Shown piece by piece: positions 7,430-26,386 of a DNA stretch of 64,000 nucleotides (its first letter is position 1; the number at the start of each line of letters is the position of its first letter). The stretch spans positions 2,485,072-2,549,071 of the forward strand of contig OZ220493.1 of the NCBI GenBank assembly GCA_965116205.1, given 5' to 3'. The notes beneath the pieces were generated by a model, which was not told the DNA's origin, did not search any database, and saw only the letters and a program-made list of their open reading frames with translations. The translations under genes and the position numbers were made by a program. Origin of the DNA: Arenicellales bacterium. GTDB taxonomy: Bacteria > Pseudomonadota > Gammaproteobacteria > Arenicellales > JAJDZL01.

Positions 7430-7439
7430 AGGTTCATTC

Positions 7440-8127: not shown

Positions 8128-9258
8128 TCATTCGATTTGATCTGGTAATCTATAACTCGTACTTCTTCCTCTGCCGGAGTTTTGAATAAAGATGCCACGC
8201 TCTTTCAAGATCTGAATATCACGCAGTGCCGTGTCTTTTGAACATTTTACAAGTCTGGAGTATTTCGAAGTGTTCATATAACCGGTGAAATCATCCGCTA
8301 GCATTCGATTGATGATCAGACGTTGACGTTCATTGATGGAGTATCGATTGATTCTCTGCCAGAGTCGTGCTTTGAAGAGAACACCATCAAGAGTAATTTC
8401 TGCAGTGGATATCGCTCGGTTCAGACAGCTCAAATACCAGTTCAGCCAGTCAGTGATCTGCGGCGAAGCGCGTTGCTGTTTTTCCAGTTGACGGTAATAT
8501 TCCTGACGTTCGGATTCAATCTGTGTCGATAGACTGTAGAAACGGTCTGCCATACCGTCGGCATGCGCCAGCGCCATATCTCCGATGGCTCTGGCGATAC
8601 GGCCATTTCCATCTTCAAATGGATGAATACTCACAAACCACAGGTGAGCAATACCTGATTTAAGCACCGTATCTATGTCTTTGTCATCATTAAACCAATT
8701 TAGAAACAATTGCATTTCCTGTTCTAGCCGGTCTGCACTGGGCGCTTCGAAGTGAATATTTTCACGACCGATAGGGCCGGAGACAACTTGCATGGGTCCG
8801 GCATTCATAGTGCGCCATCCACCAACTGTAATTTGATGCATACCACTGCGTCCCGTCGGAAAGAGTGCCGCATGCCAGTTAAACAACCGTTCGGCGGTCA
8901 GAGACTCCGAAAAATTCTGTGTTATATCAAGCTCTATTTCAACAGCACCATCTACATCAGGACTAGCTGATAAATATTCTGTGCTTTGAATTCCTAATTT
9001 TTTCGAAATAGATGATCGAACTTCAGCAACATTGAGTTTTTCACCTTCAATAGCAAAAGATTTGACAATGTCGTTAGTAAGAGTGATAACACTGGCTTCG
9101 CGTCTGAACTCAAATCCAAGTCCCTCCATTCTTCCGAGCAGACGACCTTGGCGATGACGGACTTCAGCCAATTGAAAGGCAAGGACTTCGGCATCCCATG
9201 TAAAGGCTGGCCAATTTTCGTGTTGGTGTATCCACATGTTAATCACCGCAAAATACAA
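8128..9258 (-). CDS. Fic-family protein (AMPylase-type), class II with N-terminal inhibitory helix; likely true start at 9237
   Basis: Fic motif HPFEDGNGRIARA. The upstream SFAIEG matches the (S/T)xxxE(G/N) auto-inhibition motif. A C-terminal winged-helix-like region is present. Confidence 0.85.
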   Translation of the reverse strand: MYFAVINMWIHQHENWPAFTWDAEVLAFQLAEVRHRQGRLLGRMEGLGFEFRREASVITLTNDIVKSFAIEGEKLNVAEVRSSISKKLGIQSTEYLSASPDVDGAVEIELDITQNFSESLTAERLFNWHAALFPTGRSGMHQITVGGWRTMNAGPMQVVSGPIGRENIHFEAPSADRLEQEMQLFLNWFNDDKDIDTVLKSGIAHLWFVSIHPFEDGNGRIARAIGDMALAHADGMADRFYSLSTQIESERQEYYRQLEKQQRASPQITDWLNWYLSCLNRAISTAEITLDGVLFKARLWQRINRYSINERQRLIINRMLADDFTGYMNTSKYSRLVKCSKDTALRDIQILKERGIFIQNSGRGRSTSYRLPDQIE

Positions 9259-9363
9259 GGTGATTATAGGTTTTATTCACCGCAATTTGAAAAAATCTCG
9301 CTTATACATTTCAGCTATAATAATAAATTCAATGACGACCTCAATTTATCTGAACAATTACAA

Positions 9364-9751
9364 ATGAAATCAGACCTTTCACCGACTGATCTATCCTCCG
9401 CTCTCAGGGATTTGTCGGAAATAGAGCAAGCCGCCATTGAAGAAAATGACAAAATACCATCTAAAATTGCAAGACGAAACGCTTTACGATTACTGCGAGT
9501 GATGTACGATTACTCGCCGCAGTGTTATCAGGTGTATCCGTTGCATGATGGTGAGGTCACCATTGATGCACCTGGAGGTGTACGACAGGTCCGTTGCTGT
9601 GGTGTGTGAATCGAATGGTAGCGTTTTGTGCATGGCAAATTTTTTCGGACGTAGGCGTTATGCTCGATATTCCGATGCCAGCTCTCTACCGGACAAGTTT
9701 ATGTACGAAGCATTGAGTGAACTACGATGGAGGGAGTCTGGTTCGATTTGA
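9364..9751 (+). pseudogene. Hypothetical protein, apparently frameshifted (ORFs 9148-9609 and 9545-9751)
   Basis: Two overlapping ORFs in frames offset by +1 read on from each other (...LHDGEVTIDAPGG / YDRSVAVVCESNGSVLCMANFF...). I recognise no family. Confidence 0.3.
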
Positions 9752-9920
9752 ACCTAACAGAAACCATAAAGCCAAACGAATGCCTTGGCGAGGAGTTTTT
9801 TTCAAATAGAGATACGCAAAAAGGGTGGCAGACTAGTCGAGGCTTGATACGAAACTCCAAATTAGTAAAGTCCAAATCAAACGCACATGAGTGAAATCAA
9901 TCCAGTTGAATTTCTATTCT

Positions 9921-10544
9921 TTAGACTTTTCTATGTAACCACCAATTGGAATTTTCTTCTGCACCCGCACCTTTCCAAATAAACCCGTAATCTACCAGTT
10001 CTAAATCAGAAAAATACTCGTGCCAGAACATCCCAAAGTCACGTTTAAACAACTTATTTTTGTGGCCTCAGTAATCAATCGATTCGGGCCTGTCTGAGAA
10101 ATATTCGTTTGTTACGATGTATTTTGATGTGACACGATGCAATTCACGATACGTTTCAAGTAGATTACTTGGCTCAATATGGATCAACACGCCGCACGAT
10201 ATAGCTAGTTCAACAGATTGGTCTGCAAGTGGAATTTGGTTTCCCACTCCTTCAAATATATTTTTCTCTGGTAATATCCCACTTTTTCTGAGTGTATTTC
10301 TCGCTAAAGTGTTGGGTTCAACTGCGTAAAAAATAGCATCAAGTAGATGGCTGAGAGCATGTAGATTTATTCCCACGTTGGGCCCTATTTCTACACATGA
10401 CGTAGGGAGACAATGTTCCACAGCTCGTAGGATTCGAGACCATTTCCAAGTACTACCCAGGATTCGTGCTCTGGTTAGGTTGCAACGTTGACTATACTCG
10501 TTCCCAAATTCACCACGCCAAAAATCTTCTTGTTCGGTTTTCAT
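9921..10544 (-). pseudogene. Pseudaminic-acid-biosynthesis-associated methylase-like protein with an in-frame TGA
   Basis: The N-terminus TEQEDFWRGEFGNEY and SAM-MTase core resemble the Pse-locus methylase family (from memory). ORF 10068-10544 ends at TGA 10068-10070. The same frame then stays open for 48 more codons (GHKNKLFKRDF...DYGFIWKG...) to TAA 9921-9923, giving about 207 aa. Confidence 0.55.
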
Positions 10545-10752
10545 CTGAATACTATTGTTTTACTTGTCCATATTACATTGAAAAATAACGCATTTTTTAC
10601 TAACTAACCTATTGTGTTTTTTTCTTCATGATCTTAGTATGCATGTGTGGTATGAATGGAATGCTACTGTGGTCAGAGTAAAAATTTTACAGAATTATTG
10701 GTCCAGACCCAAGAAGAGTTCCACACGAGGGATAGTGATATTATAAAATAAA

Positions 10753-10876
10753 GGCTCTATTCTAAAATCGTGCGCGTGTGCATAAAATCAGATACTTAGA
10801 AATCAATAAATATCACTTTATTTCAAAGCTATACAGCTGTTGATGTTCTTTGCGCATACAATTTTAGAATAGAGCC
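10753..10876. repeat. 124-bp element bounded by perfect 16-bp inverted repeats (MITE-like or invertible/regulatory segment)
   Basis: GGCTCTATTCTAAAAT (10753-10768) and its exact reverse complement ATTTTAGAATAGAGCC (10861-10876). AAATAAA occurs just outside both ends (10746-10752 and 10878-10884). Confidence 0.6.
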
Positions 10877-11156
10877 CAAATAAAATCATCCTTGTAAGTG
10901 TAAAGGCGCCATTTCAGGAAAAAATACTGTAGAAAACCCACGCCGGAGAGAATATGGGCTTGAACTCATTTGTAAACTCAAAATCGGCGAAATGCGATAC
11001 ACTCGAAATGACAATATGAAGAATCTGTACTCTATATCAGTGGTCTTATTAACCACTAGCAAGAATCGCGAAGTACTCCTCATTGAAGTCTAAACTGAAG
11101 ATGTGTGAGGCAAAGAGAAACCGGCTCATTTCCAGACGTTAAGAAAAATTCAGAAG

Positions 11157-12483
11157 ATGAAAGTTACACATCTACAAAGTTCTACTCAAATCATCAACTT
11201 AGGCGACCTAAAAGTGCTGACTGATCCATGGTTGACTGATGGTGAGTACTACGGCAGTTGGTATCATTATCCGCCTTTTGGGGAAGAAAATATAGACAAT
11301 TTAAATTATGACTTTATTTACGTTTCCCACATTCATCCAGATCATTTGAGTGAGAAAACGTTTCGAAAACTTCCACTCAAGAAGCCCGTACTGATTCACA
11401 ATTATGACTCTAAGTTTGTAAAGCACAAACTGGAAATATTGGGTTACGAAGTTATTGAGTGTGATCATGGTAAGACTTTTGAATTCGAAAACGGTGGTTC
11501 AATAACTATCTATGCAGCTGACAATTGCAATCCAGAGCTTTGTGGGAAATTCTTGGGCTGCGCGAATCTAGAAGCTAAATTTGGAAGCACGCAGATTGAT
11601 ACGCTAGCTGTGTTTAAGCATCAAGGCGAAACCATCGTTAACGTTAACGATTGCCCTTTTGAGTTGGCGGAGAAAACTATTATAGCTAATATGCCTGAAA
11701 TTTTCTGGGGGGGGGGTGAACTTACTTCTAGTTGGCTATGCCGGTGCCGGACCGTACCCCCAGTGTTTTCACTTTGATAATATAGGTGATAAGCAGAAAG
11801 CAGCCGAGCAGAAAGAAAAACAATTTTTGCAGCAGGCAGCAAACTATATCAATCTGCTAAAACCGGATGCCTATGCTCCTTTTGCTGGCACCTATGTTCT
11901 GGGTTCTAAATTAGTAGGGTTGACCAAATTCAGAGGGGTGCCATTAATTTCAGATGCGCTGAACATGCTGAAAAATTATATATTGAATGATAGTAGCGGA
12001 GTTCTTCTCAACAAGCTGGATGTGTACGATGTGACCACTCAGCGACTATTCAAACATGAAGATGTGCCGAATCGCACCTATGACGAATTCTTACATGAGA
12101 TTGCAAACAAAAAACTTGAATATGAAGATGATGACTGGAATGATGCGGGTCTTTCGACACTCATGAATAAGTCTTACGAGCGATTCACCACTAAGGCCAG
12201 GGAGATTGGCTTTAAATCAACTACTTCATTGGTTGTGCAGAGTGATCGGGTTGCTTATCGGCTAAGTACGAGTGTCCCACCTGTTGAAGTTCCCGTCAAT
12301 AGTCGCTGTTCTGAGCCACTTCTGCGCATAACTGTTGATCATAATTTGCTTCATCGTTTACTCAGAGGGCCTAGATTTGCCCATTGGAATAATGCAGAAA
12401 TCGGTAGCCACCTACAGTACTTTCGCCAGCCAAATACCTATGAAAGAGGTCTGCATCATTGCATCTGTTTTTTGCATCAGTAA
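11157..12483 (+). pseudogene. MBL-fold metallo-hydrolase split by a poly-G frameshift (phase-variation candidate)
   Basis: ORF 11157-11777 carries HxHxDH (VSHIHPDH). ORF 11716-12483 continues in the +1-offset frame right after the G10 tract. Removing one G gives a single 441-aa ORF. Confidence 0.7.
11707..11716 (+). repeat. Homopolymeric G10 tract inside a coding sequence
   Basis: Counted directly: ttttct GGGGGGGGGG tgaac. Confidence 0.95.
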
Positions 12484-12686
12484 ATAAATTTACATGCAAA
12501 TGGTAGGAATATTAAAAGCAGCTTTGCATGACCGGCAGGGTAATAATTCGTTACTTTGAGACCGGCGAGCATCATATCTCTAGTAACTTCTAGTAAGACA
12601 AAACGATTTTTGATTGGATACGCGTTTTGGTTTATCTTTCGATTGTTTTTCTTGTATAAGAATTGAAGAAAGTTCGACGCAGGCGA

Positions 12687-13490
12687 TCATTTGATTTCTT
12701 TTTTCATCCGCTGTCTAAATGCCAATCTTTTCGGTATGCCTTGAGTAAGGAGTAGGTGAATCCTATATCTCAGTGTCTTTCTGTTCTTGTGTGGTAAAGT
12801 TTTTGCACTTAACCTTGGTCCGTAACTTTCCTCATTATAAGAGTGGTGTATTTCACTTGGTTCACCGTGATAAACCACTTGAGGTGAAATCGTGTAAGTT
12901 CTTAACCCATTTTTCCACCATGCATGTAAGTGCAAAACAAAATCAACCAAATCAACCATTATGGGATATTCTTTCAATAAAATTTTGATGGCTTGAAGAG
13001 TGATTACGTAGCCTACTGCTCCCATTGAATTACACTTGACTATACCAAGTGTGAACTTATCATTGATCTTATAAACAGGGAGGAAAGGATTTCTTGTTTT
13101 TCCGTTGTATAAGAAAACAATATCGAATTGATGCCCTTCGTTTTGAAATATACTTTCAATTGCAACTAATGCTGACTTCGTCTCTTTGGCAAGCTGGCAG
13201 TCATCTTCAAATACGGCAATCAGCTCTTCTTCATTTGCTAATGCGGTCCGCCAAACCTTCCGGTGACTTAACCAACAAGCTAAACCGCCATGTACAGGTG
13301 GTCGCTTGAATTTTCTTTCATTCGCAAGATACTGCGAGTCAACGTTGTCTTCAATGTCTTGGTCAGTCAAGTCGCGCCAATCTACACCTGATACGAACTC
13401 AAACTCAATCTCGGTGTTCTGAAACTCATTAATGCACGTTTCCTTTCGATCTGTCGCCCGTTCTAAGTGAATCACATAGCATTTCATCAA
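12687..13490 (-). CDS. Glycosyltransferase family 25 (LOS/LPS-type), copy A
   Basis: MKCYVIHLERATDR N-terminus and VFEDDC motif. It has a basic C-terminal tail (GIPKRLAFRQRMKKE) shared with ORF 35760-36608. Confidence 0.8.
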   Translation of the reverse strand: MMKCYVIHLERATDRKETCINEFQNTEIEFEFVSGVDWRDLTDQDIEDNVDSQYLANERKFKRPPVHGGLACWLSHRKVWRTALANEEELIAVFEDDCQLAKETKSALVAIESIFQNEGHQFDIVFLYNGKTRNPFLPVYKINDKFTLGIVKCNSMGAVGYVITLQAIKILLKEYPIMVDLVDFVLHLHAWWKNGLRTYTISPQVVYHGEPSEIHHSYNEESYGPRLSAKTLPHKNRKTLRYRIHLLLTQGIPKRLAFRQRMKKEIK

Positions 13491-13732
13491 ATTTGTTCCG
13501 GAAGTTGAACCACTCGCTTGATCACTTTAATAATGATTTTCCACTTTTCTGATGGTATTGAGCATTTTTCGCTGATTAGTCGAGGTGTTTTTAGCAGTTG
13601 AAAAATAGTAATACAGAAAATTACGCTATCGTTGTTGGCGGGCGTGAAACACTGAGCTAATTCAGGATAAGTCTCATTGAACGAGTATTCCAGTTTGACA
13701 ACTGGCTCGCAGAAATCACTCTGCCCGGTCAA
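13487..13732 (-). CDS. Hypothetical small protein (81 aa), doubtful
   Basis: The ORF bridges the gap between the ATPase and GT25 genes, overlapping both ends (stop overlaps the GT25 ATG). I recognise no motifs and the paralogous region has no counterpart. Confidence 0.2.
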   Translation of the reverse strand: MTGQSDFCEPVVKLEYSFNETYPELAQCFTPANNDSVIFCITIFQLLKTPRLISEKCSIPSEKWKIIIKVIKRVVQLPEQI

Positions 13733-15038
13733 TGAGATACTGTCGAAACGACGGAATTGGGATGATCAGATTTGTGTCCACACGATGCACCATCCCAGCA
13801 AAAACCATCTCCTCGATGAAATCTATTGGCTTCATGTTTTCAAGCATTACACTCTCTGAATCAGGGGCAGTTTCCCATGCTCTACCTCTGAGAAAAGATA
13901 CAAGTTTTAATCTAGAACAACCCTCGGGCCCGATCAACCGTGCGACATCTGCGAGTAATTGTTTGCAGTCGCTGATGGGTGAGTGATCCAATCGGTCTCT
14001 GTAATACTGCAGGCGACACCTATCGCCAAACGAACGTACTGTGGCCTCATCCACGCTTGCTAGATCAAGGTGGTTGATTTTGAGCTGATTGGCTAACCCC
14101 ACCATGTAGTGAAACAGATGTTGCGGCCAACCATTGGACCATTCGTTTATCTTGTCAGGTAAGTCGGAATTGTCTCTGTCTTTGATTTGGTAGCCATCTA
14201 ACATGGCACGCACCGATTCAGCCGCCTCACCAGTTTCCAATACCCCTAACGTCTGTACATGACTTTGTCCATTACTAGTAGCAAAGCGCGAGATTCTCTC
14301 CGCCGCTAATTTTGATTTGGAGTAGGCGAGTCCATAAAGAACCGCCAAAATCGGTAAACCATGCGTACCGTTGTGCAATTTGAATAGCAACGCCACATCC
14401 TCTGGCTTGAAAATCTGCACCTCATCAATCATCACCACAATAGGCCGTAGTTTTGGTGGTTTAATTGAACTTCCTTTTATGACCCTCTTGAAGATAGCTG
14501 CAGTTTTTTTACTGTAGAGCTTTGCTAGATCTTGCAAAACTAATTGAGATGACTGCTCACTATCGGTCACTTTTCCTCCACCCTTGATAAACATGTTAAA
14601 ACCGAGGTCTCTTTCAACAGTGCGAACAGAGTCAAGTATTTCCGCACCATAGTCTGGTACGATGCAGTTAGCAATTGTGCGCGTGACTTCAGACTCATTG
14701 CGCAGTTCAACCGGCTCAATTCTCACCACCACGGGTCCGTTAGACTTTGCCATCCATCTGTTCTGCAAATGACTAAGTAATGCCGATTTGCCGGCGCCGG
14801 GTGCCCCTTGAATTAGCCAAGTCTCTTGGTTAGATAACACCATTCCAGGCTGCAAACCTGCGTTAGGGGTTTCATACTTGATTCTGTTTTCGATTTCGGC
14901 AACTGTGGATTCGATGCCAGTGATGATATCTTTGCGTCCAACGAAGAATATGGCCTTATTCTTGTCGCTCCTTTGTCCGAATTTTTCCAAGGAAATTGGG
15001 GGTTCGATATACATTTGCGATGTCTCAGTTTTCAGCAT
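13716..15038 (-). CDS. STAND/AAA_16-like NTPase with C-terminal winged-helix-like region, copy A
   Basis: FFVGRKD...(FVGRxxE-type lead-in), Walker A QGAPGAGKSALL, Walker B VVMIDEVQ, and a SNGWPQHL helical-arm-like motif. It is paralogous to ORF 43766-45058. Confidence 0.65.
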   Translation of the reverse strand: MLKTETSQMYIEPPISLEKFGQRSDKNKAIFFVGRKDIITGIESTVAEIENRIKYETPNAGLQPGMVLSNQETWLIQGAPGAGKSALLSHLQNRWMAKSNGPVVVRIEPVELRNESEVTRTIANCIVPDYGAEILDSVRTVERDLGFNMFIKGGGKVTDSEQSSQLVLQDLAKLYSKKTAAIFKRVIKGSSIKPPKLRPIVVMIDEVQIFKPEDVALLFKLHNGTHGLPILAVLYGLAYSKSKLAAERISRFATSNGQSHVQTLGVLETGEAAESVRAMLDGYQIKDRDNSDLPDKINEWSNGWPQHLFHYMVGLANQLKINHLDLASVDEATVRSFGDRCRLQYYRDRLDHSPISDCKQLLADVARLIGPEGCSRLKLVSFLRGRAWETAPDSESVMLENMKPIDFIEEMVFAGMVHRVDTNLIIPIPSFRQYLIDRAE

Positions 15039-15323
15039 GCTCTACATCAATCATAACATGTTACATCAGACGGTGAATCATATTAAATTGGAACAGTTTG
15101 GGGTGTATTCAGGATGAATCTCAGCTAATGCATTATTATTAACATCTCTATGGTTATAATATTCACCTAACATCCAGCACCATAATGGATTGAAGCCACT
15201 GAGTTGAAAGTTAGTGCCCCTTTTTCAGCCGAATTATATGGTGGTACCACCGACCTTTGTTCCTGCGAATTTTTTAGGTGAGGTGTTTGCGCACACCTAA
15301 CCATAAGATATGATACACAGAGA

Positions 15324-16001
15324 ATGATAGTTACAATTCACCAGCCGGCATTTCTTCCTTGGCTAGGTTATTTTGACAAAATCCTTCACAGCGATACCTA
15401 TGTGTTCTTAGATTCAGTCCAATTTCGGAAGGGTGGCTATTCCAATCGAAATAGAATAAAGGGGGCTAACGGAGTGATATGGTTAACCATACCGGTCAAG
15501 CTAAAGGGTCACAAATCCAGCACCATCGGAGATATACCAATTGATTACTCACAGAAATGGAAAAGACAACATTTAAATTCTATCTTTTTCAACTATCGAA
15601 AGGCGAAGTTCTTCGATCTCCTGTTCCCAAAGTTAGAAACTCTCTATGCGGAAAAGCATGAGCTATTGTCAGAACTTGTCTATGCTCAATTGTTATTTTG
15701 GATGAGTGAGCTAGGCATTGAAACCGAAGTCGTTAAATCTAGTGATATTCCCACTCAGTGCAAGAAATCTGATTTGGTTTTGGAGTTGTGTATAAAACTT
15801 GGTGCACATCAATATCTTGCCAGTCCAAATAGTACAATTTACTTAGAGGAGACTGGTTTCCATGATCATTCGATTCGTATTGACTACCGAGGCTACGAAC
15901 ATCCAGTGTATCCACAACTTTTTGGTGAGTTTGTTCCAAATCTATCAATCGTTGATTATTGGATGAACGCGCACAAATCAATTTTCGTTCGAGAGGAATA
16001 A
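15324..16001 (+). CDS. WbqC-family protein, copy 1
   Basis: The N-terminus IHQPAFLPWLGYFDKI is typical of the WbqC-like family. 225 aa. Confidence 0.75.
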   Translation: MIVTIHQPAFLPWLGYFDKILHSDTYVFLDSVQFRKGGYSNRNRIKGANGVIWLTIPVKLKGHKSSTIGDIPIDYSQKWKRQHLNSIFFNYRKAKFFDLLFPKLETLYAEKHELLSELVYAQLLFWMSELGIETEVVKSSDIPTQCKKSDLVLELCIKLGAHQYLASPNSTIYLEETGFHDHSIRIDYRGYEHPVYPQLFGEFVPNLSIVDYWMNAHKSIFVREE

Positions 16002-16004
16002 TTG

Positions 16005-16676
16005 ATGCCCGAATTGAGCCAAAGTGACATCTGGAATAAAGTTTATAGCCACCACAAGCGACATGCAATTTGGCCTTGGACGGATCTCGTTAAACTCGTC
16101 ATGCGTCATGCATCTCCACCTTACCGGAAAGGTTTCAAAGTACTCGAATTAGGCTGTGGTGCCGGCGCTAATATTCCATTTTTTGCATCGCTGGGGGTGA
16201 GTTATTTTTCCGTAGAATCAAGTGAGGTCATTGTCTCCCAGTTGCATGAAACTTATCCACAATTCTGTGATTCTATAGTCGCCGGAGATTTCACAAGAGA
16301 GTTGCCTGATGAGGAGTTTGATTTGATTGTAGATCGAGCAGCGCTCATTCATAATAAATCTGCAACCATTGAACTGTGTATGCAGCATTGCCATGAGAAA
16401 CTGAAATCAGGTGGTAAATTTATCGGTGTTGATTGGTATTCAACCCGATGCAGTTCCTTTGCACACACTGAGGCGGAAGATGAATGGACGCGAGTCAATT
16501 TTGCAAGTGGTCCTTTTGTTCCCGTATACCGAGTTCATTTCACCAACAAGACACGTTTACTGGAGATATTATCAAATTTTGAATTAGAGGTATTGGAACA
16601 TAAAACGATTGAATCGGAGTCGGACAAAGAAAACGCGACCCTTGCAAGTTGGAACTTCGTAGCAACAAAATCATGA
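16005..16676 (+). CDS. Class I SAM-dependent methyltransferase, copy 1
   Basis: VLELGCGAGAN motif I. It starts 3 nt after the wbqC-1 stop. Its 5' ~260 nt are about 94% identical to copy 2. Confidence 0.8.
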   Translation: MPELSQSDIWNKVYSHHKRHAIWPWTDLVKLVMRHASPPYRKGFKVLELGCGAGANIPFFASLGVSYFSVESSEVIVSQLHETYPQFCDSIVAGDFTRELPDEEFDLIVDRAALIHNKSATIELCMQHCHEKLKSGGKFIGVDWYSTRCSSFAHTEAEDEWTRVNFASGPFVPVYRVHFTNKTRLLEILSNFELEVLEHKTIESESDKENATLASWNFVATKS

Positions 16677-16784
16677 TGGGCAATGCGGTGAGATGGAAAT
16701 GTTGGCCAGAGGCGGTGGAGCGGAGCCTCCACTAAACCACTTCGATTCACTTATTTTTACGCAACATGAAAGCGTTACCATAAA

Positions 16785-17462
16785 ATGGTTGTCTCAGTCC
16801 ATCAGCCGGCATTTCTACCATGGCTAGGTTACTTCAACAAAATTATTCGTAGCGATAAATTTGTCTTTCTTGATACGGTTCAATTTGAGAAGGGGAGTTT
16901 TGTTAACCGAAATCGGATCAAAGGTAACAACGGAGTGATATGGTTGACGGTGCCTATTAAAATAAAAGGACACATGACCAATACCATCAAGAATATTTTG
17001 ATTGATAATACTCAGAAGTGGCAAAGAAGGCATCTGAATTCAATTTTTTTCAACTATCGAAAAGCGAAGTATTTTGATCGTTTGTATCCGCAGTTAGAAC
17101 AGCTGTATCAGGAACGGTATGATTTTCTGTCTGACCTCACCTATTCACAGTTGAAATTTTGGCTGGATGAACTGAACATCAATACCAAAGTCATTAAGTC
17201 GGAAGATTTGTCCACTCAACGTAGGAAATCTGATCTTATCTTGGAATTATGTCTACGGCTGGGTGCCGATCAATATCTAGCAGGTTCGCTCAGTAAGAAT
17301 TATCTTGATGAATCAGCGTTTCGTCAGCAGTCAATTGATATCGAATACCAAAACTACCAAGGTCCGAAATATCCACAACTTTTTAGTGGATTCATTCCTA
17401 ATCTATCCATTGTTGATTATTGGATGAACACTCACAATACCATTTTCATTCGCGAGGAATAG
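16785..17462 (+). CDS. WbqC-family protein, copy 2
   Basis: VHQPAFLPWLGYFNKI N-terminus. It has the same length as copy 1 (225 aa) and is about 70% identical. Confidence 0.75.
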   Translation: MVVSVHQPAFLPWLGYFNKIIRSDKFVFLDTVQFEKGSFVNRNRIKGNNGVIWLTVPIKIKGHMTNTIKNILIDNTQKWQRRHLNSIFFNYRKAKYFDRLYPQLEQLYQERYDFLSDLTYSQLKFWLDELNINTKVIKSEDLSTQRRKSDLILELCLRLGADQYLAGSLSKNYLDESAFRQQSIDIEYQNYQGPKYPQLFSGFIPNLSIVDYWMNTHNTIFIREE

Positions 17463-17464
17463 TT

Positions 17465-18145
17465 ATGCCCGAATTGAGCCAAAGTGACATCTGGAATAAA
17501 ATTTATACCCACCACAAGCGCCATGCAATTTGGCCTTGGACGGATCTCGTTCAACTAGTTATGCGTTATGCATCTCCACCCTACCAGAAGGGTTTCAAAG
17601 TACTTGAATTAGGCTGTGGTGCCGGCGCTAATATTCCCTTTTTTGCATCGCTAGAGGGGGGGGGGGTGAGTTATTTTTCCGTAGAATCAAGTGAGGTCAT
17701 TGTCTCCCAGTTGCATGAAACTTATCCGCAGTTTCGCGATTCAATAGAGGTTGGTGACTTCACAACAGAACTGCCTAATGAACAATTTGATCTGATTGTC
17801 GATCGAGGGGCAATGATTTGTAACAAATCCAAAGCTATTGCACGATGTATTCAGCGTTGTTATGCACAACTCAATTCTGGTGGAAAATTTATTGGTGTCG
17901 ACTGGTACTCTACCCAATGCAGTTCATTTGCGCAAGCTCAGGTGGAGGATGAATGGACCCGAGTGAATTTTGTAAATGGCCCCTTTGTACCTGTGCATAG
18001 AATACATTTTAGCGATAAAGAGCATCTGCTGGATTTGTTTTCCAATTTTGAAATCGAAGCACTTGAGCATAAAACCATTAACAATGAATATAACGAAAAT
18101 CACCCTACCTTGGCCAGCTGGAATTTTGTGGCGGTAAAAGTATGA
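17465..18145 (+). CDS. Class I SAM-dependent methyltransferase, copy 2 (contains an in-frame G11 tract)
   Basis: MPELSQSDIWNK start is homologous to copy 1, so the 17420 start in the ORF track is probably an upstream extension. VLELGCGAGAN motif. It has an extra EGG relative to copy 1, encoded by the poly-G tract. Confidence 0.8.
   Translation: MPELSQSDIWNKIYTHHKRHAIWPWTDLVQLVMRYASPPYQKGFKVLELGCGAGANIPFFASLEGGGVSYFSVESSEVIVSQLHETYPQFRDSIEVGDFTTELPNEQFDLIVDRGAMICNKSKAIARCIQRCYAQLNSGGKFIGVDWYSTQCSSFAQAQVEDEWTRVNFVNGPFVPVHRIHFSDKEHLLDLFSNFEIEALEHKTINNEYNENHPTLASWNFVAVKV
17656..17666 (+). repeat. Homopolymeric G11 tract inside a coding sequence (in frame)
   Basis: Counted directly: ctaga GGGGGGGGGGG tgag. 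The homologous site in copy 1 (16193-16197) is G5. Confidence 0.95.
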
Positions 18146-18820
18146 AAAATGTTCTTGTCGTTGCGGCGCATCCCGATGATGAAATTCTAGGTTGTGGTGG
18201 GGCCATGGCCCGCCATGTTGAGCACGGTGATGATGTTCATGTTCTATTTGTTGCGGATGGCGTGAGTTCAAGAGGCGGTGATTTCAGCATTGATGAACAT
18301 CGCCAAATGAGTATTCGCGCCAATGAAGAAGTTGGTACCCATTCACCGCGATTTTTGGATTTCCCAGATAATCAGCTGGATAGCGTTCCTTTGCTTCAAA
18401 TTGTTCAGGGGATAGAGCCCCATATTGAAGATATTTCTCCAAGAATCATCTATACACATTTCTCCGGTGATTTAAATATCGATCACTCCATTGTGAATCG
18501 CGCGGTGATGACAGCCTGCCGACCACAACCGAATTTTCCCGTTCAAGAAATTTACGCATTTGAAGTTCCGTCGAGCACGGGCTGGCTTCCAAATGGGGGG
18601 GGGGGTGAACTCCTTTGAGCCTAATGTCTTTGTTAACATTACAAAAACGTTTTCCAAAAAGTTGGCTGCACTTGAGTTTTATGGAAATGAAATGCGACCA
18701 TTTCCACACAGCAGGAGTTTTGAAGGAGTTGAACATTTAGCCTGTTTTCGCGGTACATCTGTAGGATTGGAGATGGCTGAAGGATTTGTTGCGGAACGCA
18801 TTCTTCAGGTTGACCGTTGA
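18142..18820 (+). pseudogene. PIG-L/LmbE-family deacetylase split by a poly-G frameshift (phase-variation candidate)
   Basis: VVAAHPDDEILGCGG N-terminal motif in ORF 18142-18618. ORF 18560-18820 (FEPNVFVNIT...PHSRS...) continues in the +1-offset frame after the G11 tract. Removing one G gives a 225-aa ORF. Confidence 0.75.
18595..18605 (+). repeat. Homopolymeric G11 tract inside a coding sequence
   Basis: Counted directly: ccaaat GGGGGGGGGGG tgaac. Confidence 0.95.
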
Positions 18821-18835
18821 GAACTGAAAACCTGA

Positions 18836-19438
18836 ATGGAACAACTCAGCAAATGTCATGGAGATGGTCAAAAGATACTGTTTCTAGGCTTTGATCGAAA
18901 TAAAACGAGTTTGATTGATTATTTAATTTCAAAAGGACATGAAGTTTGGCATACCGAAAAAACCATCTCTGCCGTGACTGATTTCCAATTTGTCATCAGT
19001 TTTGGCTATATGCACATGATCACACGTGAAGTGCTTCGAGATCACAAGTGCCTGTTCATCAACTTACATATTTCCTATCTGCCGTTTAACCGAGGATCTA
19101 ATCCAAATTTTTGGGCTTTCTACGATCAAACGCCCAGTGGGGTAACTATTCATAAGATTGATGCTGGAACTGACACCGGTGACATTATTTGTCAAAAGCA
19201 GGTAAAGTTTGATCAAGGGGAAACAACTTTTGTTCAGACCTACAACAGACTGATTATTGAGACCGAAGAATTATTCAAAAATTGGTGGAACTTGATTGCT
19301 ACCCATCAATTTACCGCGACTCCTCAAGATGTAAAAGCGGGTACCTATCATAGAGATTCAGATCTGCCGAAAGAGATATCCACCTGGGACGTAGAGATTA
19401 CCTCAGAAATTAATCGCCTCAGAGAGTTGTTGAGTTAA
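18836..19438 (+). CDS. Sugar N-formyltransferase-like protein (formyl-transferase N-terminal domain only)
   Basis: NLHISYLPFNRGSNPNFWA matches the HxSxLPxxRG formyltransferase motif. 200 aa. Confidence 0.7.
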   Translation: MEQLSKCHGDGQKILFLGFDRNKTSLIDYLISKGHEVWHTEKTISAVTDFQFVISFGYMHMITREVLRDHKCLFINLHISYLPFNRGSNPNFWAFYDQTPSGVTIHKIDAGTDTGDIICQKQVKFDQGETTFVQTYNRLIIETEELFKNWWNLIATHQFTATPQDVKAGTYHRDSDLPKEISTWDVEITSEINRLRELLS

Positions 19439-19522
19439 GAATGAAATGCTAACGCCATACTTGAAATTGAAAATTCGGAAGATTTATCCCAACCTATTCT
19501 CACCTGACATCTACAAATCTCT

Positions 19523-20515
19523 ATGTTACAGAAATCGTCAATCCTGTTAACCGGTGGCACCGGTTCTTTTGGTTCTCGTTTTGTTCCATTAGCACTGGAA
19601 AAATACGATCCTTCCCGTCTGGTCATTTATTCTCGCGATGAAATGAAACAATGGGAGATGTCGAAGGCATTCCAGAATGATCCGCGGGTTAGATTTTTTC
19701 TGGGCGATGTGCGTGATAAAGAACGCCTCTACAGAGCGATGGATGGAGTTGACTATGTAGTTCATGCTGCTGCACTCAAAATCATACCCATCGCTGAGTA
19801 CAATCCGTTTGAATGCATCAAGACCAATATCAATGGCGCGATGAATGTCATTGATGCCTGTCTGGACGTTGGAGTCAAAAGATGCATCGCTCTTTCTACT
19901 GACAAGGCGTCCAGTCCGGTGAATCTCTATGGGGCGACCAAGTTGGCGGCGGAAAAATTGTTTGTCGCCGCCAATGCTTACTCTGGAAACTCCCGTTGTC
20001 GCTTTGCTGTGGTTCGGTACGGAAACGTGATGGGATCGAGGGGGTCGGTGATTCCTTATTTTCTATCATTGGATAAGCAAGGCGAATTACCGATTACGGA
20101 TGTTCGTATGACTCGCTTTATGATCAAACTCGAGCAGGCAGTAGACTTGGTTTTTCATGCTTTTTCTGAGATGGTAGGGGGCGAGATTTACATTCGTAAG
20201 GTGCCATCCATGAATATTATGGACATCGCTAAAGCCTGCGTTCCAAATTCGAAACACAAAATTATTGGTATTCGCCCCGGTGAAAAGTTAAGCGAACAGC
20301 TCGTCGGTGAAGATGAATCAGCCTTTACCTATGAATACGATGAGTATTTCAAGATCATGCCGGCAATCCAAACCTTCTCAGAGCAACCCAAACCCGATGG
20401 TCAATTGGTTGCCAGCGGGTTCAAATACGCGTCAGATTCAAACGATTCATGGATGGAAATTCAAGAACTATCGGAATGGATCGACAACAACCGCGACATC
20501 ATTGGTTACTTCTAA
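19523..20515 (+). CDS. pseB: UDP-N-acetylglucosamine 4,6-dehydratase (inverting), PseB/FlaA1-type
   Basis: LLTGGTGSFG Rossmann motif and YGATKLAAEK (YxxxK). 330 aa, immediately followed by a PseC-type aminotransferase. Confidence 0.85.
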   Translation: MLQKSSILLTGGTGSFGSRFVPLALEKYDPSRLVIYSRDEMKQWEMSKAFQNDPRVRFFLGDVRDKERLYRAMDGVDYVVHAAALKIIPIAEYNPFECIKTNINGAMNVIDACLDVGVKRCIALSTDKASSPVNLYGATKLAAEKLFVAANAYSGNSRCRFAVVRYGNVMGSRGSVIPYFLSLDKQGELPITDVRMTRFMIKLEQAVDLVFHAFSEMVGGEIYIRKVPSMNIMDIAKACVPNSKHKIIGIRPGEKLSEQLVGEDESAFTYEYDEYFKIMPAIQTFSEQPKPDGQLVASGFKYASDSNDSWMEIQELSEWIDNNRDIIGYF

Positions 20516-21670
20516 TTGATTCAATATGCCCGCCAAAACATCACGAAAGGTGATGTTGAAGCAGTCGTTGCGGCACTGAGTTCGAATTTTTTGACACAGG
20601 GTCCGCTGGTGCCTGAATTTGAACAGGCGGTCGCACAACAGGTAGCGGCGAAATATGCCGTTGCAACTAACTCGGCAACCTCTGCGCTACACACAGCCTG
20701 TTTAGCTCTAGGACTGTGTTCTGATGATTTACTTTGGACCGTTCCCAATTCGTTTGTGGCATCGGCAAATTGTGGATTACTTTGTGGGGCTGAAGTAGAT
20801 TTTGTTGATATTGATTCAACAAGTTACTGTATGGACGTAGATGCATTAGCCAGCAAATTAAAAACAGCTGAACTGGCCGGACGACTACCCAAGGTCTTAG
20901 TCGTTGTACATTACGCCGGGCATAGTGCAGAGATGCTGTCGATTAGAAAACTCGCCAATCAATATGGAATCCATGTCATTGAAGATGCTGCCCACGCTAT
21001 AGGTGGTAGTTATCGGGGAAAGTTGATTGGCTCCTGCGAATTTAGCGATGTTACTGTTTTCAGTTTTCATCCGGTCAAAATCATGACGACAGCCGAAGGC
21101 GGAATGGCTGTTACCAACGATGCGCAAATTGCTTCACGTATGGCGAGACTCCGAACTCATGGAGTGACCCGAAATCAGGCTGAAATGCAGAACAAAAATC
21201 CTCATCCATGGGAATTTGAGCAACTCGAACTTGGCTTGAATTATCGAATGACTGAGTTGCAGGCGGCGTTGGGAATATCGCAATTGGGGCGGCTTGATGC
21301 TTTTGTATCTCGTCGTCGTCAACTGGCTCATCAATATGACGCACAACTTCGTAAATTACCTTTAATTCTACCTAATCTACAATCATCGAATGAGTGTGCT
21401 TGGCATCTGTATCCAGTGTTGATCGACTCAAGGCAGACGACATTGACACGGGAACAGGTCTATTATTCACTGCTGGACAGAGGAATCAAATCAAACGTAC
21501 ATTTCATTCCCATCCATACGCAACCATACTTTAAGGAAATGGGCTTCGCAGTCGGCGACTTTCCAGTGTCCGAGTGGTTTTATGCCCATGAACTCAGTTT
21601 ACCGATGTATTATGATTTGACTGATTCAGAGCAACAGAGCGTGATAGATGCGATGTTTGCAGTGTTTTGA
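20516..21670 (+). CDS. pseC: UDP-4-amino-4,6-dideoxy-N-acetyl-beta-L-altrosamine transaminase-like (DegT/PseC family); TTG start
   Basis: The N-terminus IQYARQNITKGDVEAVVAALSSNFLTQGPLVPEFE is PseC-like. SFHPVKIMTTAEGG carries the PLP-lysine context. Confidence 0.8.
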   Translation: MIQYARQNITKGDVEAVVAALSSNFLTQGPLVPEFEQAVAQQVAAKYAVATNSATSALHTACLALGLCSDDLLWTVPNSFVASANCGLLCGAEVDFVDIDSTSYCMDVDALASKLKTAELAGRLPKVLVVVHYAGHSAEMLSIRKLANQYGIHVIEDAAHAIGGSYRGKLIGSCEFSDVTVFSFHPVKIMTTAEGGMAVTNDAQIASRMARLRTHGVTRNQAEMQNKNPHPWEFEQLELGLNYRMTELQAALGISQLGRLDAFVSRRRQLAHQYDAQLRKLPLILPNLQSSNECAWHLYPVLIDSRQTTLTREQVYYSLLDRGIKSNVHFIPIHTQPYFKEMGFAVGDFPVSEWFYAHELSLPMYYDLTDSEQQSVIDAMFAVF

Positions 21671-21740
21671 ATCTCTTGGTTTATTTCCATCCGTTCAGGA
21701 AATGGATTTCGCAATGATAACTGACCCAATGTCGATGAAA

Positions 21741-23237
21741 CTATGATGAGAAGGTCGTACTGATTCTGTTTTGAATCAAATCAACAATGGTATTGGCGAC
21801 TCGTTTGGCATTTTTTTCTAGATCGTGTTTGCCACCGGACCTCCGTCTTTTCAGTGGTTGAATACGGCCGCCATGGGCACGGGCAAAAAGTTGACGGACT
21901 GCTTGTTGCAGATGCTCTGGATCAATCTTGAAATCACAGATACGGTCATAAGTGAGGTCATCTTGATACTTGAATATTCCCGGTAAATTCAGATACCAAG
22001 GCGATCCAAAAATCAGTGCTTTTTTGCCATTGCAGATGGCTTCCCAAGCTGCAGTTCCGGTAATCGCCGCAACAAACTGAGCGTGTTCAATCAATTGGTG
22101 GGTATTGGCATAAGAGGGTACCCAACGAATGTTGCTCAGGTGACTGAGTCGATGAAAAAATTGCGCACCACGCATACACCCACCTTGCTTTGGATTTTCC
22201 TTGAGATAAATCAGACAGTCATCAGGCAGCAATTGACACAGTTGCTCCAATGCCAGAATCTGGTCGGCATAAATGCCTCCAAGTGTGGAGGTTGTCATTT
22301 CAGGTTGGAGCTGTAGCGGAAAATAGACGAATTTACAGTGGAAATCAATCTCAGTCGTTTCGAATTGTAGCAGTGTTTCAAAGTAATCCAGATGACGGAT
22401 ATCAAAATACCTGGAGAATGGATACCGCCATTTAGGCAACAAAGATGCAATACGACTCATTCGCCGCAGAAAATTGGCCAAGTGAAAAGGTTGTAATAGG
22501 GTTGCTGGCCGTACCGTAAGTAAATGTACCAATAGCATCAGTATCCCCAGTCCATTGAGTTTTCCCAATTTGCCTTGCTGCTGCTCCGTACCTTTCATGT
22601 AATCCCATTCTAGTGTTTCGGTCAATTCGGCGAACCGATGATCATCTTGCAGAGTGGGAGTTGGTGACCATTTTCCATAATCATTGATATCACGAAGGGA
22701 AAAAAAGTACTCGGGGTATATCGTTGGTGAGAGCATTAAGGTATTGATTTGTCGAGACTTCGCGATCTGGTAGGCCAAGGTGTCTACGAACAAGTGCGGA
22801 AGCTCGAAAAACAGTATCAAATCAATTCTTTGCTGTGTCAAATAATGAGCAATAAGATCGGTGATGATGCGATAGTAGTGCTTCTCATCCATAATGGAAT
22901 TCAGTTCATGATGCCGCCAGACAAAACTAGCAGATTTCCGTTCTAAGTGGTCTAGAGCCATGAGTGTCGCTGCATTTGATTGTGCGCTCAACAGCAGTTC
23001 TAATCCATGACCAGAAAACTGATCATTTTGCAAGATTTCTGCGATAGCTCCTGATCTTTTTTCCATTCTTACCAAGTTGGTTAAACCGATATCCTGTTGG
23101 TTGCCGACCACGATCAATCTTGATGTAGAGGGTAACAGACAGTTCAGCTGACGGACTATGGCTTGCATGAGAATGTCAGCCGCGCCAAAGACTAAGATAG
23201 TTTGTGGAGTCAAGTTGAGTTGGGTAGTTTGCGTCAT
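21741..23237 (-). CDS. Capsule-polysaccharide-biosynthesis-family protein (KpsS/KpsC/LpsZ-like), paralogue 1
   Basis: 498 aa. YFPLQLQPEMTTS motif and C-terminal ...VAAITGTAAWEAICNGKKALIFG. Family assignment is from memory and unverified. Confidence 0.55.
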   Translation of the reverse strand: MTQTTQLNLTPQTILVFGAADILMQAIVRQLNCLLPSTSRLIVVGNQQDIGLTNLVRMEKRSGAIAEILQNDQFSGHGLELLLSAQSNAATLMALDHLERKSASFVWRHHELNSIMDEKHYYRIITDLIAHYLTQQRIDLILFFELPHLFVDTLAYQIAKSRQINTLMLSPTIYPEYFFSLRDINDYGKWSPTPTLQDDHRFAELTETLEWDYMKGTEQQQGKLGKLNGLGILMLLVHLLTVRPATLLQPFHLANFLRRMSRIASLLPKWRYPFSRYFDIRHLDYFETLLQFETTEIDFHCKFVYFPLQLQPEMTTSTLGGIYADQILALEQLCQLLPDDCLIYLKENPKQGGCMRGAQFFHRLSHLSNIRWVPSYANTHQLIEHAQFVAAITGTAAWEAICNGKKALIFGSPWYLNLPGIFKYQDDLTYDRICDFKIDPEHLQQAVRQLFARAHGGRIQPLKRRRSGGKHDLEKNAKRVANTIVDLIQNRISTTFSS

Positions 23238-23281
23238 CTACTTGGAGATGAGGAATGCCTGGTTACGAGAATTTTGCCCAT

Positions 23282-24766
23282 TTAGAGACTCGTCTGCGAG
23301 GAGGCCATTCGCTCTGATGAGCGAAAGCTGGTATCCGCGCGGTTGAAAATGAGCTTGATTATTTGGTTGGCAACGATTTCTGCGTTTTTTTCAATGCCAA
23401 TGGCATGAGTCTGCGCTGATGATTGCATGTCATCTGGGTGAAGATTACCATCATGTGATTTCGAGAATAGAATATTAATTTGATCATTAACTTCTAGATT
23501 AGTGAAATGAGATTCAACAACTTCTTCATAAGAAAGTTCATTTTTAAAGATGTGGACTCCAGGAAATTTCCAGTACCAAGGTTTGCCAAAAACGAGTACT
23601 TTTTTATCCAAATTGAGCGCATTCCACCCCAGTTGACTGTTCACAGTGGCAAATATTTCACAATTCTCCAGGAGTTGTTGAGTGTTCATGCAACGAGGTA
23701 TATGGACTACGTTTGAGATTCGTCTGAGCCGATGGAAAAACATCGGAGTCAGGTAGTCTGAGTGTTCGACATCGCTATCCTTAACCATGATCTTGTAATG
23801 GCTTGGAATGAATCTCGACAGTTGTTCAATGGCGAGTAATTGGTCCGAAAATTGATTGAGCAATATTTCCGAGTAGAGTTCTCTTAACGGCTGTAAAGGA
23901 AAATAAACGTACTTGTGCTGTAGCTGAGATGTGATATCACAATCTTGAGTGATAAATTCAAAATAAGCATGTTTTTTTTGAAAGAAGAACTTGGCAAATG
24001 GATCACGCCAGTCGTTTCTGTTGGGTGGTGCGTCATGTAAGTGTCTTGCCCGGCTCAGGACAAAGACCGGGTCAAACAACTTGATTGATCGAATCTCCAA
24101 GAGAAACAACACGACTTTGATGGCATTTGCGAGCGTTAATCGGCTGGTTGATTTCTGCTGAGTCATATCCGCCGGTATGGTGTTGCCTTTCAAATGAGAA
24201 ATTTCTTGTTTTGTTACCTCGACAAAGGTTTCATAGTCACCGAAGTCATGCAATGACCGCAATGAAAAAAAACGTTTTGGAAAAATAGCGGGAGTCAGTA
24301 TCAGGGTTTCTATTCGTAGTGCTTTCGCCACTTGGTATAACAGAAGGTCGACTAATGCAGTGGGCCAATTGAAGAATACGATCAAGTCAATTTTCTGTTC
24401 CACCAAGTGATTCTGCAGTAGATTCCATAGCATCTGATTAGCATGTAGATTGTCGTGGAACAGGAGAATATTCCCATCTTTGCCGCGCTCATATTCTTGA
24501 ACCAAGGCGTTTGCCAATTGACTGCCCGGGTCGGTGTTGAAAGTGAGCGGGTAATTGCAGTGGGAAGGTTCCACAACACTTGAATAATGAGAATAGTTGT
24601 GATGCGGATAAGTGGAATCATAGATTTTTTCAATCGCCAAGTCACTTTGATCAAATACCAGCACTTGGGCAGAATGATGCAGTGATTCCTTTTTCAACTG
24701 CCGCAATATTTCCGCATTGTCGTCAGATTTCCCGACGATGAGAATGCGCGGAGCTGTTTTTTTCAT
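23282..24766 (-). CDS. Capsule-polysaccharide-biosynthesis-family protein, paralogue 2 (most divergent); start probably at 24766
   Basis: YFPLQPLRELYSE motif. Alignment with paralogues 1 and 3 starts at MKKTAPRILIVGK. The ORF track extends it to 24874. Confidence 0.55.
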   Translation of the reverse strand: MKKTAPRILIVGKSDDNAEILRQLKKESLHHSAQVLVFDQSDLAIEKIYDSTYPHHNYSHYSSVVEPSHCNYPLTFNTDPGSQLANALVQEYERGKDGNILLFHDNLHANQMLWNLLQNHLVEQKIDLIVFFNWPTALVDLLLYQVAKALRIETLILTPAIFPKRFFSLRSLHDFGDYETFVEVTKQEISHLKGNTIPADMTQQKSTSRLTLANAIKVVLFLLEIRSIKLFDPVFVLSRARHLHDAPPNRNDWRDPFAKFFFQKKHAYFEFITQDCDITSQLQHKYVYFPLQPLRELYSEILLNQFSDQLLAIEQLSRFIPSHYKIMVKDSDVEHSDYLTPMFFHRLRRISNVVHIPRCMNTQQLLENCEIFATVNSQLGWNALNLDKKVLVFGKPWYWKFPGVHIFKNELSYEEVVESHFTNLEVNDQINILFSKSHDGNLHPDDMQSSAQTHAIGIEKNAEIVANQIIKLIFNRADTSFRSSERMASSQTSL

Positions 24767-24874
24767 ATTGAGAAAATACCAATCTTTTCCAAGAGTTGAA
24801 TCAGCAGATAAAACAACGAGTGACTTGACTAATCGAGCTATCCAATTGGCAAGGTTAACGAGAAAATAGCTCAA

Positions 24875-26386
24875 TTACCCTTCATTGTTCAAAAATGTCG
24901 GCTCAACTTTATGTTCAATCAGGTCCAGTATGGTTCGCGCGACGGTTTTTGCATTGGCGACTAGTGCAATTGCATGGTCTTGATCTTTCTGTTTTGCAAT
25001 ATACAACGCGCCTTCGTGAGTGCGAGACAACAATAGTCCAGCCTTTTGTTCTAACTCGGCATGGTTGATCTCAGAAGAAATAATTTCGTCATAAGTCATG
25101 CCATAACGAAATGGAATGGCACCGTCTAAATCTCGATACCAAGGATTGCCAAAGAAAAGAACCGCCTTGCCTTTGCAAATCGCTTCCCAACCGACTGTTC
25201 CGGTAACGGTGGCTACAAATTGTGAGTGGTCGAGCAATTCCTGCGTGTTGGCATAGGAAGGGACCAATCGCACCTGACGAATGCGAAACAGTCGGTTGAA
25301 GAACTGTGCACCCCGCATCGCGCCGGTTTGTTTGGGATTTTCCTTTACGAAAATTAAGCAGTCAGCGGGAATTATCTCCGCGAGTTTCTCAATGGCCAGC
25401 AACTGATCATAATAGTCTCCACCGATTGTCGATGTAGATAATTCCGGTTGTAGATGTAAAGGAAAATAAACGAACTTACAGTGCCAATCAATTTCAGACT
25501 TTTCAAAATCCAGTAGTGTTTCGAAATATGCGAGATGACGGATATGGAAAAATTTCGCAAATGGGTAACGCCACTTGGGAAGGGTGCTTGCTATGTGCCG
25601 CATTCGATTGATGCAATTAACCAAATATCGAGGATTAAATAGTTTGACCGGCGTAGAAGTTAACAGGTGACAGAACAGCGCGATGATGCCGCGTCCATCC
25701 AAAGAACCCAGTTGGCCCTGATACTGCTTAACACTAGACATATATCCCCACTCAATGGTTAGATTTTTGTCAATGGTGAGTGGCGCCACTGGTGGCTGAT
25801 CCGAATGTTCTCGTAGGCGGCCAAATTGGTCAAGGTCTCGAAGTGAAAAAAAGCGATTGATAAAAGGTGAAAAAGTGAGGATGATGGTTTGAATGCGCTT
25901 GGCTTTGGCAATGTGATAGGCGATGGTATCGTAGTAAAGGTGAGGAATATCGAAGAACAATACGACATTGATATGGTTACGTACCATATGGTCAGCCATG
26001 ATATCCACTACCAAATGGTAGTATTGCACCGCATCGTAGAACGTGTTGAGGTTGTTGTGTGACCACGCAAAGTTTTCCGTTCTTCGCTGTAGATGATCCA
26101 GACCCATCAGCACGGCTTCACTCAGCGCTTTGCTGTTCACCCAGTGTAACTCTCCCCCGGAGTACATTGAATCTTTTATGTTCAGACTTTTTTTTGTTTT
26201 TCGACGTTTAATCCGAGTTAACCCACTCATCACAATGTCAGCACCTCGTTTTCCAGCAACGTCAAATTGCGCTGATTTGGGCAGTTGATTTCTTAACTGC
26301 GAAACGATGGTTTGTAGCGTTTCATTGCTAGTACTGAATGCCAGAATGCACAATGCTCCGTCAGTCAACTCTGTTGTCGATTGCAT
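24875..26386 (-). CDS. Capsule-polysaccharide-biosynthesis-family protein, paralogue 3
   Basis: 503 aa with YFPLHLQPELSTS motif. It is collinear with paralogue 1 along its whole length. Confidence 0.55.
   Translation of the reverse strand: MQSTTELTDGALCILAFSTSNETLQTIVSQLRNQLPKSAQFDVAGKRGADIVMSGLTRIKRRKTKKSLNIKDSMYSGGELHWVNSKALSEAVLMGLDHLQRRTENFAWSHNNLNTFYDAVQYYHLVVDIMADHMVRNHINVVLFFDIPHLYYDTIAYHIAKAKRIQTIILTFSPFINRFFSLRDLDQFGRLREHSDQPPVAPLTIDKNLTIEWGYMSSVKQYQGQLGSLDGRGIIALFCHLLTSTPVKLFNPRYLVNCINRMRHIASTLPKWRYPFAKFFHIRHLAYFETLLDFEKSEIDWHCKFVYFPLHLQPELSTSTIGGDYYDQLLAIEKLAEIIPADCLIFVKENPKQTGAMRGAQFFNRLFRIRQVRLVPSYANTQELLDHSQFVATVTGTVGWEAICKGKAVLFFGNPWYRDLDGAIPFRYGMTYDEIISSEINHAELEQKAGLLLSRTHEGALYIAKQKDQDHAIALVANAKTVARTILDLIEHKVEPTFLNNEG

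Follow-up and report, generated by a model that had tools for sequence, protein, structure and literature searches.

One of two methyltransferase genes lying close together in a surface-glycan locus carries an uninterrupted run of eleven G residues (G11), and we consider it reasonably probable, by analogy with described systems, that this run is a newly born slipped-strand contingency locus of an already known kind. The run occupies positions 17656-17666 on the + strand of the window, by which we mean the whole 64-kb stretch of DNA that was analysed. The gene that contains it is in frame as assembled.

The G11 Tract and Its Reading Frame

Methyltransferase copy 2 (17465-18145, + strand) codes for 226 aa, and the pure G11 spans the last base of codon 64 through the first base of codon 68 of this 226-codon ORF. 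According to the sequence itself and a homopolymer scan the tract stands in the context tcg cta gag ggg ggg ggg gtg agt, whereas copy 1 (16005-16676, + strand; 223 aa), which has no long tract, reads tcg ctg ggg gtg agt at the homologous site, with a proto-tract of five G residues (G5, 16193-16197). Copy 2 has nine extra bases compared with copy 1, aga plus six G, and together with the preceding aga the tract encodes an in-frame insert of 9 nt, Glu-Gly-Gly (E64-G65-G66). An earlier sequence-only reading of this DNA had described the G11, the G5 and the in-frame insert in the same way. It had also counted 12 mismatches between the copies in the 188 nt from the start codons to the tract, which is correct, and 62 identical nt after the tract, which is one too many; the identical stretch is 61 nt long and the first mismatch is found at 16259/17728.

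A run of ten G residues did not appear in any of 100 dinucleotide-preserving shuffles, so the G11 is not explained by chance. Nor is such a run required for coding, since GGG is the rarest of the glycine codons in the ORFs of the window (12.7%).

The effect of a change in tract length was found by translating edited sequences. G11 as assembled gives the full-length protein of 226 aa. With G10 the reading frame ends in EGGG followed by a TGA directly after the tract, giving a protein of 67 aa, and with G12 a stop is met eight codons downstream, giving 76 aa. The two truncations support the earlier claim that copy 2 is ON and one slippage step away from OFF. It should be kept in mind that the ON call hinges on the exact length of a homopolymer in what is probably a long-read assembly. 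Both in its length and in its intragenic position the tract fits the description of a slipped-strand phase-variable contingency locus, for which G/C tracts count as hypermutable from 7-8 upward; in Campylobacter poly-G/C runs of at least 7 are treated as phase-variable (PMC6321876).

The Two Methyltransferase Copies

Both copies match general Pfam models of class I SAM-dependent methyltransferases above the gathering cut-off. For copy 2 the scores are 37.2 bits for Methyltransf_25 (cut-off 27), 34.7 for Methyltransf_31 (27) and 27.5 for Methyltransf_11 (21.2); no specific NCBIfam model was found for it. Copy 2 was modelled with AlphaFold2 from an alignment of 40 sequences, with a pLDDT of 89.8 and a pTM of 0.88, and a Foldseek search with this model returned SAM methyltransferases, the best being 2p8j (E 6e-14, TM 0.73-0.79). 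Motif I, LELGCGAGAN, is unchanged in every one of the 40 aligned closest homologues, and E74, at the end of strand 68-74 (beta-2), is nearly invariant among them.

The AlphaFold2 model places the insert E64-G66 between helix 57-62 and strand 68-74. This alpha-A/beta-2 loop follows motif I in the model and just precedes beta-2 with its conserved terminal acidic residue, and an additional turn here would plausibly be tolerated. The C-terminal two-thirds of copy 2 have 66% amino-acid identity to copy 1 and keep the invariant residues of the family, a combination which suggests that copy 2 has a distinct function that has been retained.

A Pseudaminic-Acid-Type Glycan Locus

The methyltransferase genes belong to two tandem units, each consisting of a WbqC-like gene followed by a methyltransferase gene (15324-16001 and 16005-16676 in unit 1, 16785-17462 and 17465-18145 in unit 2). 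Both WbqC-like genes are on the + strand and match PF08889, with 236 bits for unit 1 and 241 bits for unit 2. The units are followed on their 3' side by genes for a PIG-L/LmbE-type deacetylase, a formyltransferase-domain protein (18836-19438, + strand), PseB, the inverting UDP-GlcNAc 4,6-dehydratase (19523-20515, + strand; TIGR03589, 501.8 bits against a cut-off of 407.75), and the aminotransferase PseC (20516-21670, + strand; TIGR03588, 512.6 bits against 423.5). Because PseB and PseC both score above the NCBIfam equivalog cut-offs, the locus is taken to be one for a pseudaminic-acid-type surface glycan. The neighbouring genes are the sole guide to the methyl acceptor: the cassette of WbqC, methyltransferase, PIG-L deacetylase and formyltransferase probably serves to decorate a surface sugar of the pseudaminic-acid type.

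Copy 2 ends and the PIG-L gene begins within the sequence ATGA (18142-18145), in which the stop and start codons overlap. This suggests translational coupling, in which case an OFF state of copy 2 could be polar on PIG-L. Scans for promoters and terminators around the units gave nothing above chance. Rfam, tRNA and tandem-repeat scans of the 64-kb window were empty, with no RNA element or other type of repeat at the tract.

The GC content of the glycan locus (about 6000-26000 of the window) is 0.39-0.45 versus 0.47-0.52 in the flanks, as would fit a surface-polysaccharide locus that is variable or has been exchanged horizontally. On the opposite strand the locus is adjoined by three Capsule_synth-like genes and a gene for a GT25 glycosyltransferase. 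Other genes in or beside the island code for an AAA-ATPase_like/PDDEXK_9 protein (5174-6736, - strand), a Fic/DUF4172 protein (8128-9258, - strand) and an AAA_16-type ATPase (13716-15038, - strand); these may be defence-related or mobile-element cargo.

Two Neighbouring Genes Split by G Runs

The window contains three G/C runs longer than 6 (11707-11716, 17656-17666 and 18595-18605), and otherwise the longest runs are six G and five C. A stretch of 7 kb takes in all three, each of them on the coding strand of a gene of the glycan locus, next to PseB and PseC. The first, a G10, splits a gene for an MBL-fold protein (11157-12483, + strand), which is out of frame as assembled. Deletion of one G, leaving G9, fuses the ORFs 11157-11777 and 11716-12483 into an MBL-fold protein of 441 aa which over 100% of its length can be aligned with homologues (about 439 aa), at up to 74% identity; among the matches listed, these homologues have no glycine at the tract position. 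The JGI name for them is "UDP-MurNAc hydroxylase". A tblastn search with the repaired protein against all retrieved loci found nothing.

The third run, a G11, splits the PIG-L/LmbE-type deacetylase gene (18142-18820, + strand), likewise out of frame as assembled. Here deletion of one G, leaving G10, fuses 18142-18618 and 18560-18820 into a deacetylase of 225 aa with 69% identity and 99% coverage relative to full-length homologues. All three tracts of the window are directly followed by TGA (at 11717, 17667 and 18606), two of them sharing TGAACT, and in the ON frame each reads Gly-Gly-Val(GTG)-Asn/Ser.

The MBL-fold and PIG-L genes are broken at the tracts only. Since there is no second lesion in either gene, a reversible OFF state fits them better than decay does. 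This bears also on the view that the G11 of copy 2 is a mutational hotspot by which a redundant paralogue drifts toward pseudogenisation, as happens in host-restricted bacteria, and not a selected switch. Such a view could point to the tract-free second copy 1.4 kb upstream, to the two neighbouring genes that are already frameshifted, and to the resemblance of this low-GC locus to a variable island. Copy 2 itself is intact, however, with a diverged C-terminus that has kept the invariant residues, the frameshifted neighbours are otherwise undamaged, and one relative has its PIG-L tract in frame; we therefore regard decay as very unlikely.

Tracts in Related Genomes

A scan of the contigs of species-representative genomes, among which the window's own genome is not included, gave a single relative, a 3.8-Mb Arenicellales MAG, which is the closest genome available. 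Its PIG-L gene has a G11 at the same site, one base too long for the reading frame (L001:11116-11126). Two co-assembled strains of a third relative have a G9 there, in frame, in a gene for 224 aa (L084:10454-10462; L085/L086:11119-11127). Over four haplotypes the site reads G11 (OFF), G11 (OFF), G9 (ON) and G9 (ON), a variation between species and not within a clone. When L085 and L086 were compared with each other no difference in tract length was seen, both being G9. The PIG-L proteins are 69-82% identical and share three or four consecutive GGG codons as a pure homopolymer in both frame states, just as one would expect of a contingency tract that is being maintained.

Some further features of these relatives were recorded. 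Between L085 and L086 (ERZ25070917, two contigs), 1133 substitutions and 26 indel events were counted in about 20.7 kb; PseB is called shorter in L085 (290 aa versus 330 aa in L086), and two Capsule_synth genes are split in L085. As regards the further pseudaminic-acid pathway genes (PseF/G/H/I), genes with CTP_transf_3 and Acetyltransf_3 domains lie upstream in L084, a syntenic relative. In the Arenicellales MAG a WbqC-like gene contains an in-frame C9, one codon longer than in the window copies (L002:9648-9656), and a G9 (L002:19673-19681) lies in one part (19485-19748) of an IS1595-family transposase gene which is called in two pieces. What these data show is that the lineage repeatedly carries G/C runs in its glycan cassette; switching at the methyltransferase tract itself is presumed by analogy with known loci.

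One could suspect that the exact lengths are artefacts of homopolymer consensus, or the mode of a mixed population, so that the real tract of copy 2 is G10, G12 or a mixture and the out-of-frame neighbours are miscalls. The window genome and its relatives come as single contigs several megabases long (3.33 and 3.81 Mb), with names that look like the output of a long-read metagenome assembler, and a consensus of this kind is at its weakest in the length of homopolymers. Furthermore, the three out-of-frame tracts, two in the window and one in L001 (followed by TGA at L001:11127), are all exactly 1 nt longer than the in-frame length, and a systematic over-call of this kind could put copy 2 at G10, which is OFF. 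A uniform error of +1 is contradicted by the G11 of copy 2 and the G9 in two independently assembled strains, which are in frame. A miscall would alter the current state of the gene and leave the nature of the element as it is. We hold it to be distinctly unlikely that the length call misleads in this way.

The frame states among relatives also bear on transcriptional slippage or ribosomal frameshifting, which would yield a fixed mixture of full-length and truncated protein with no change in the DNA. Long homopolymers can cause RNA polymerase to slip, and a process of this sort would account for out-of-frame tracts being tolerated in two genomes. Yet no frameshift-stimulating structure or Rfam element is present, and tract lengths differ among the relatives in such a way that the frame changes. 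Slippage at the RNA level could at most modify a switch in the DNA, not replace it, and as the explanation of the tract we find it hardly credible.

Gene Conversion and the Origin of the Insert

An alignment of the two units reveals a patch, 15939-16258 on the unit 1 side and 17400-17727 on the unit 2 side (both + strand), the latter containing the G11. Over 319 nt of this patch the units are 93% identical versus about 68% elsewhere, and the last 80 aligned nt are identical except for the insert of 9 nt. Codons 1-86 of the two copies comprise 71 identical, 10 synonymous and 5 non-synonymous pairs, compared with 42, 48 and 47 in codons 87-223. At the N-terminus the two copies share 94% of their amino acids, and other pairs drawn from the copies and the orthologues of related genomes share 62-77%. 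We rejected constraint at the protein level as the cause of the near-identical flanks, as synonymous sites are identical too and the other N-terminal pairs reach only 62-77%.

The C-terminal identity of 66% is similar to the values between genomes, and the copies therefore appear to be old paralogues whose 5' third has been homogenised by gene conversion. Compared with two unlinked methyltransferase genes of the Arenicellales MAG, the copies have C-terminal identities of 59-71%, values which do not settle orthology. The expansion took place within about 320 nt homogenised in this way, which accounts for the nearly identical flanks of the tract. The tract either expanded after the conversion or survived it. 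As a matter of arithmetic one may speculate that there was once a G14 (G5 plus 9) in which two G-to-A changes left A-G-A-G11.

The insert is absent from all 40 closest homologues in a collection of 5.8 billion proteins, one of which has a single-residue insert at this place, and from all three orthologues in related genomes. The homologous codons are ttg aag gcg (L K A) in the first methyltransferase of the Arenicellales MAG (L001), cta gga gct (L G A) in its second (L002), ctg gga gtc (L G V) in the third relative and ctg ggg gtg (L G V) in copy 1 of the window. Judged from these comparisons the insert is derived and represents an evolutionarily recent expansion of a short G run. The proposal of the sequence-only reading that the tract arose or expanded in an otherwise near-identical segment is borne out by this distribution; that reading had named, as the observation which would speak against it, orthologues that all carry a fixed, interrupted Gly-rich insert, and the orthologues have no insert at all.

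Looking up the exact protein of copy 2 gave no contig record from a second assembly. The protein cluster of copy 2 has one member from one contig, and a scan of metagenome contigs for its exact flanking DNA, with any tract length between the flanks, gave no match. Eighty metagenomic loci (about 550 kb) contain three G/C runs of at least 8, none at the tract site and two at contig ends; the methyltransferases encoded in these loci are distant relatives with 55% identity or less and serve only as a negative control. One distant metagenomic methyltransferase gene has a G8 run at another position (L082:6388-6395). Since no relative shares the tract of copy 2, nothing points to selection for its maintenance. 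The G11 in copy 2 is carried by one genome, and in this sample of one no length variation was seen.

These data may also be read as describing a neutral and effectively fixed loop insertion left by past slippage, in a mismatch-repair-proficient cell whose mutation rate is too low for a switch. The Glu-Gly-Gly keeps the reading frame and belongs to a surface loop of a fold that was modelled with confidence, one genome alone carries it, and the length of the loop is slightly variable in the family, as the homologue with one extra residue shows. Against this stand the purity of a G11 made of the rarest glycine codon and its being one of three clustered runs, the other two of which are out of frame in otherwise intact genes. 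The PIG-L run has moreover stayed a pure homopolymer across relatives while its length and frame state differ, and G runs of at least 9 are known to be hypermutable even in repair-proficient Haemophilus and Neisseria. A fixed insertion is in our judgement unlikely.

A more specific version of the contingency-locus reading is that the pair of paralogues records the birth of such a locus, G5 having grown to G11 or longer after the conversion in a lineage of uncultured marine Arenicellales-like bacteria which keeps an adjacent PIG-L poly-G switch across species. We put this forward tentatively, as a possibility short of even chances.

Comparison with Known Phase-Variable Loci

The closest parallel is found in Campylobacter. 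As in the poly-G/C genes for capsule, LOS and flagellin glycosylation of C. jejuni, C. coli and C. fetus, the window has an intragenic coding-strand G run, there of 8-13 residues, in glycan-modifying enzymes. In both cases several tracts are clustered in a pseudaminic-acid or other surface-glycan locus, where by analogy frame shifts would turn genes ON and OFF. The gene classes are the same, a methyltransferase (UbiE_3, the Cj0170 class) and a formyltransferase-associated cassette, and the tracts are found in paralogous families. The recurrent members of the Campylobacter phasome include SAM-dependent methyltransferases with G8-13, a formyltransferase-domain protein, Cj1295 and the maf paralogues (PhasomeIt, PMC6321876).

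There are also clear differences. Campylobacter is an epsilonproteobacterial pathogen lacking mismatch repair, whereas the present host is an uncultured marine gammaproteobacterium with a genome GC of about 46%; published work on the Arenicellales describes lineages that are marine, associated with sponges and active in sulfur cycling. In Campylobacter the tracts form a conserved part of a species phasome, but the tract of copy 2 is absent from all relatives and apparently newly born.

The maf/1318 family of Campylobacter, a paralogous phase-variable family, is reportedly homogenised by recombination (Karlyshev 2002, reference 37 in PMC6321876). The window resembles it in having glycosylation-locus paralogues that share near-identical segments, some with a poly-G tract. 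It departs from that family in that the long tract is present in one paralogue only and the other keeps the G5 precursor, by which the expansion step itself has been captured.

In Neisseria and Haemophilus LOS/LPS glycosyltransferase genes such as lgtA, lgtC and lgtG contain intragenic poly-G runs in which slippage by one base toggles translation. A large number of glycoforms results from the combination of several such homopolymer genes. Mismatch repair is proficient in these organisms, and their switching rates have been measured experimentally. Their genes code for glycosyltransferases acting on another glycan, whereas the gene in the window codes for a methyltransferase.

A Possible Switch and Its Meaning

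The mechanism we propose starts from a G5-like run (CTG-GGG-GTG, persisting in copy 1) which would have expanded recently to G11 in the gene for a functional SAM-dependent methyltransferase of class I. During replication, slipped-strand mispairing would then add or remove one G, as in the known poly-G contingency loci, and copy 2 would be turned ON and OFF stochastically and reversibly while copy 1 would be constitutive. This presupposes that the run is hypermutable, and the benefit may lie in the evasion of phage, grazers or a host. With the MBL-fold and PIG-L tracts, up to eight surface-glycan phasotypes would be possible. Premature termination in copy 2 may in addition lower the expression of the PIG-L gene coupled to it through the ATGA overlap.

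In annotation, the split MBL-fold and PIG-L genes should be called phase-variable or frameshifted, and not pseudogenes or separate ORFs. The PIG-L gene is a candidate switch which diverged relatives have kept in the same position, in both frame states. For copy 2, the presence of a tract-bearing paralogue beside a tract-free one would date the origin of its tract to after the gene conversion, and if these paralogues do record the birth of a contingency locus, phage or host pressure is the probable driver.

Poly-G contingency loci are textbook knowledge for a few host-adapted pathogens and are poorly documented in environmental and symbiotic marine bacteria. Here three candidate switches are clustered in the pseudaminic-acid glycan island of an uncultured gammaproteobacterium. 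If the proposed reading is true, phase variation of glycans by simple sequence repeats (SSR) would be a strategy that is actively evolving in marine bacteria, whether free-living or symbiotic, beyond the pathogens of animals.
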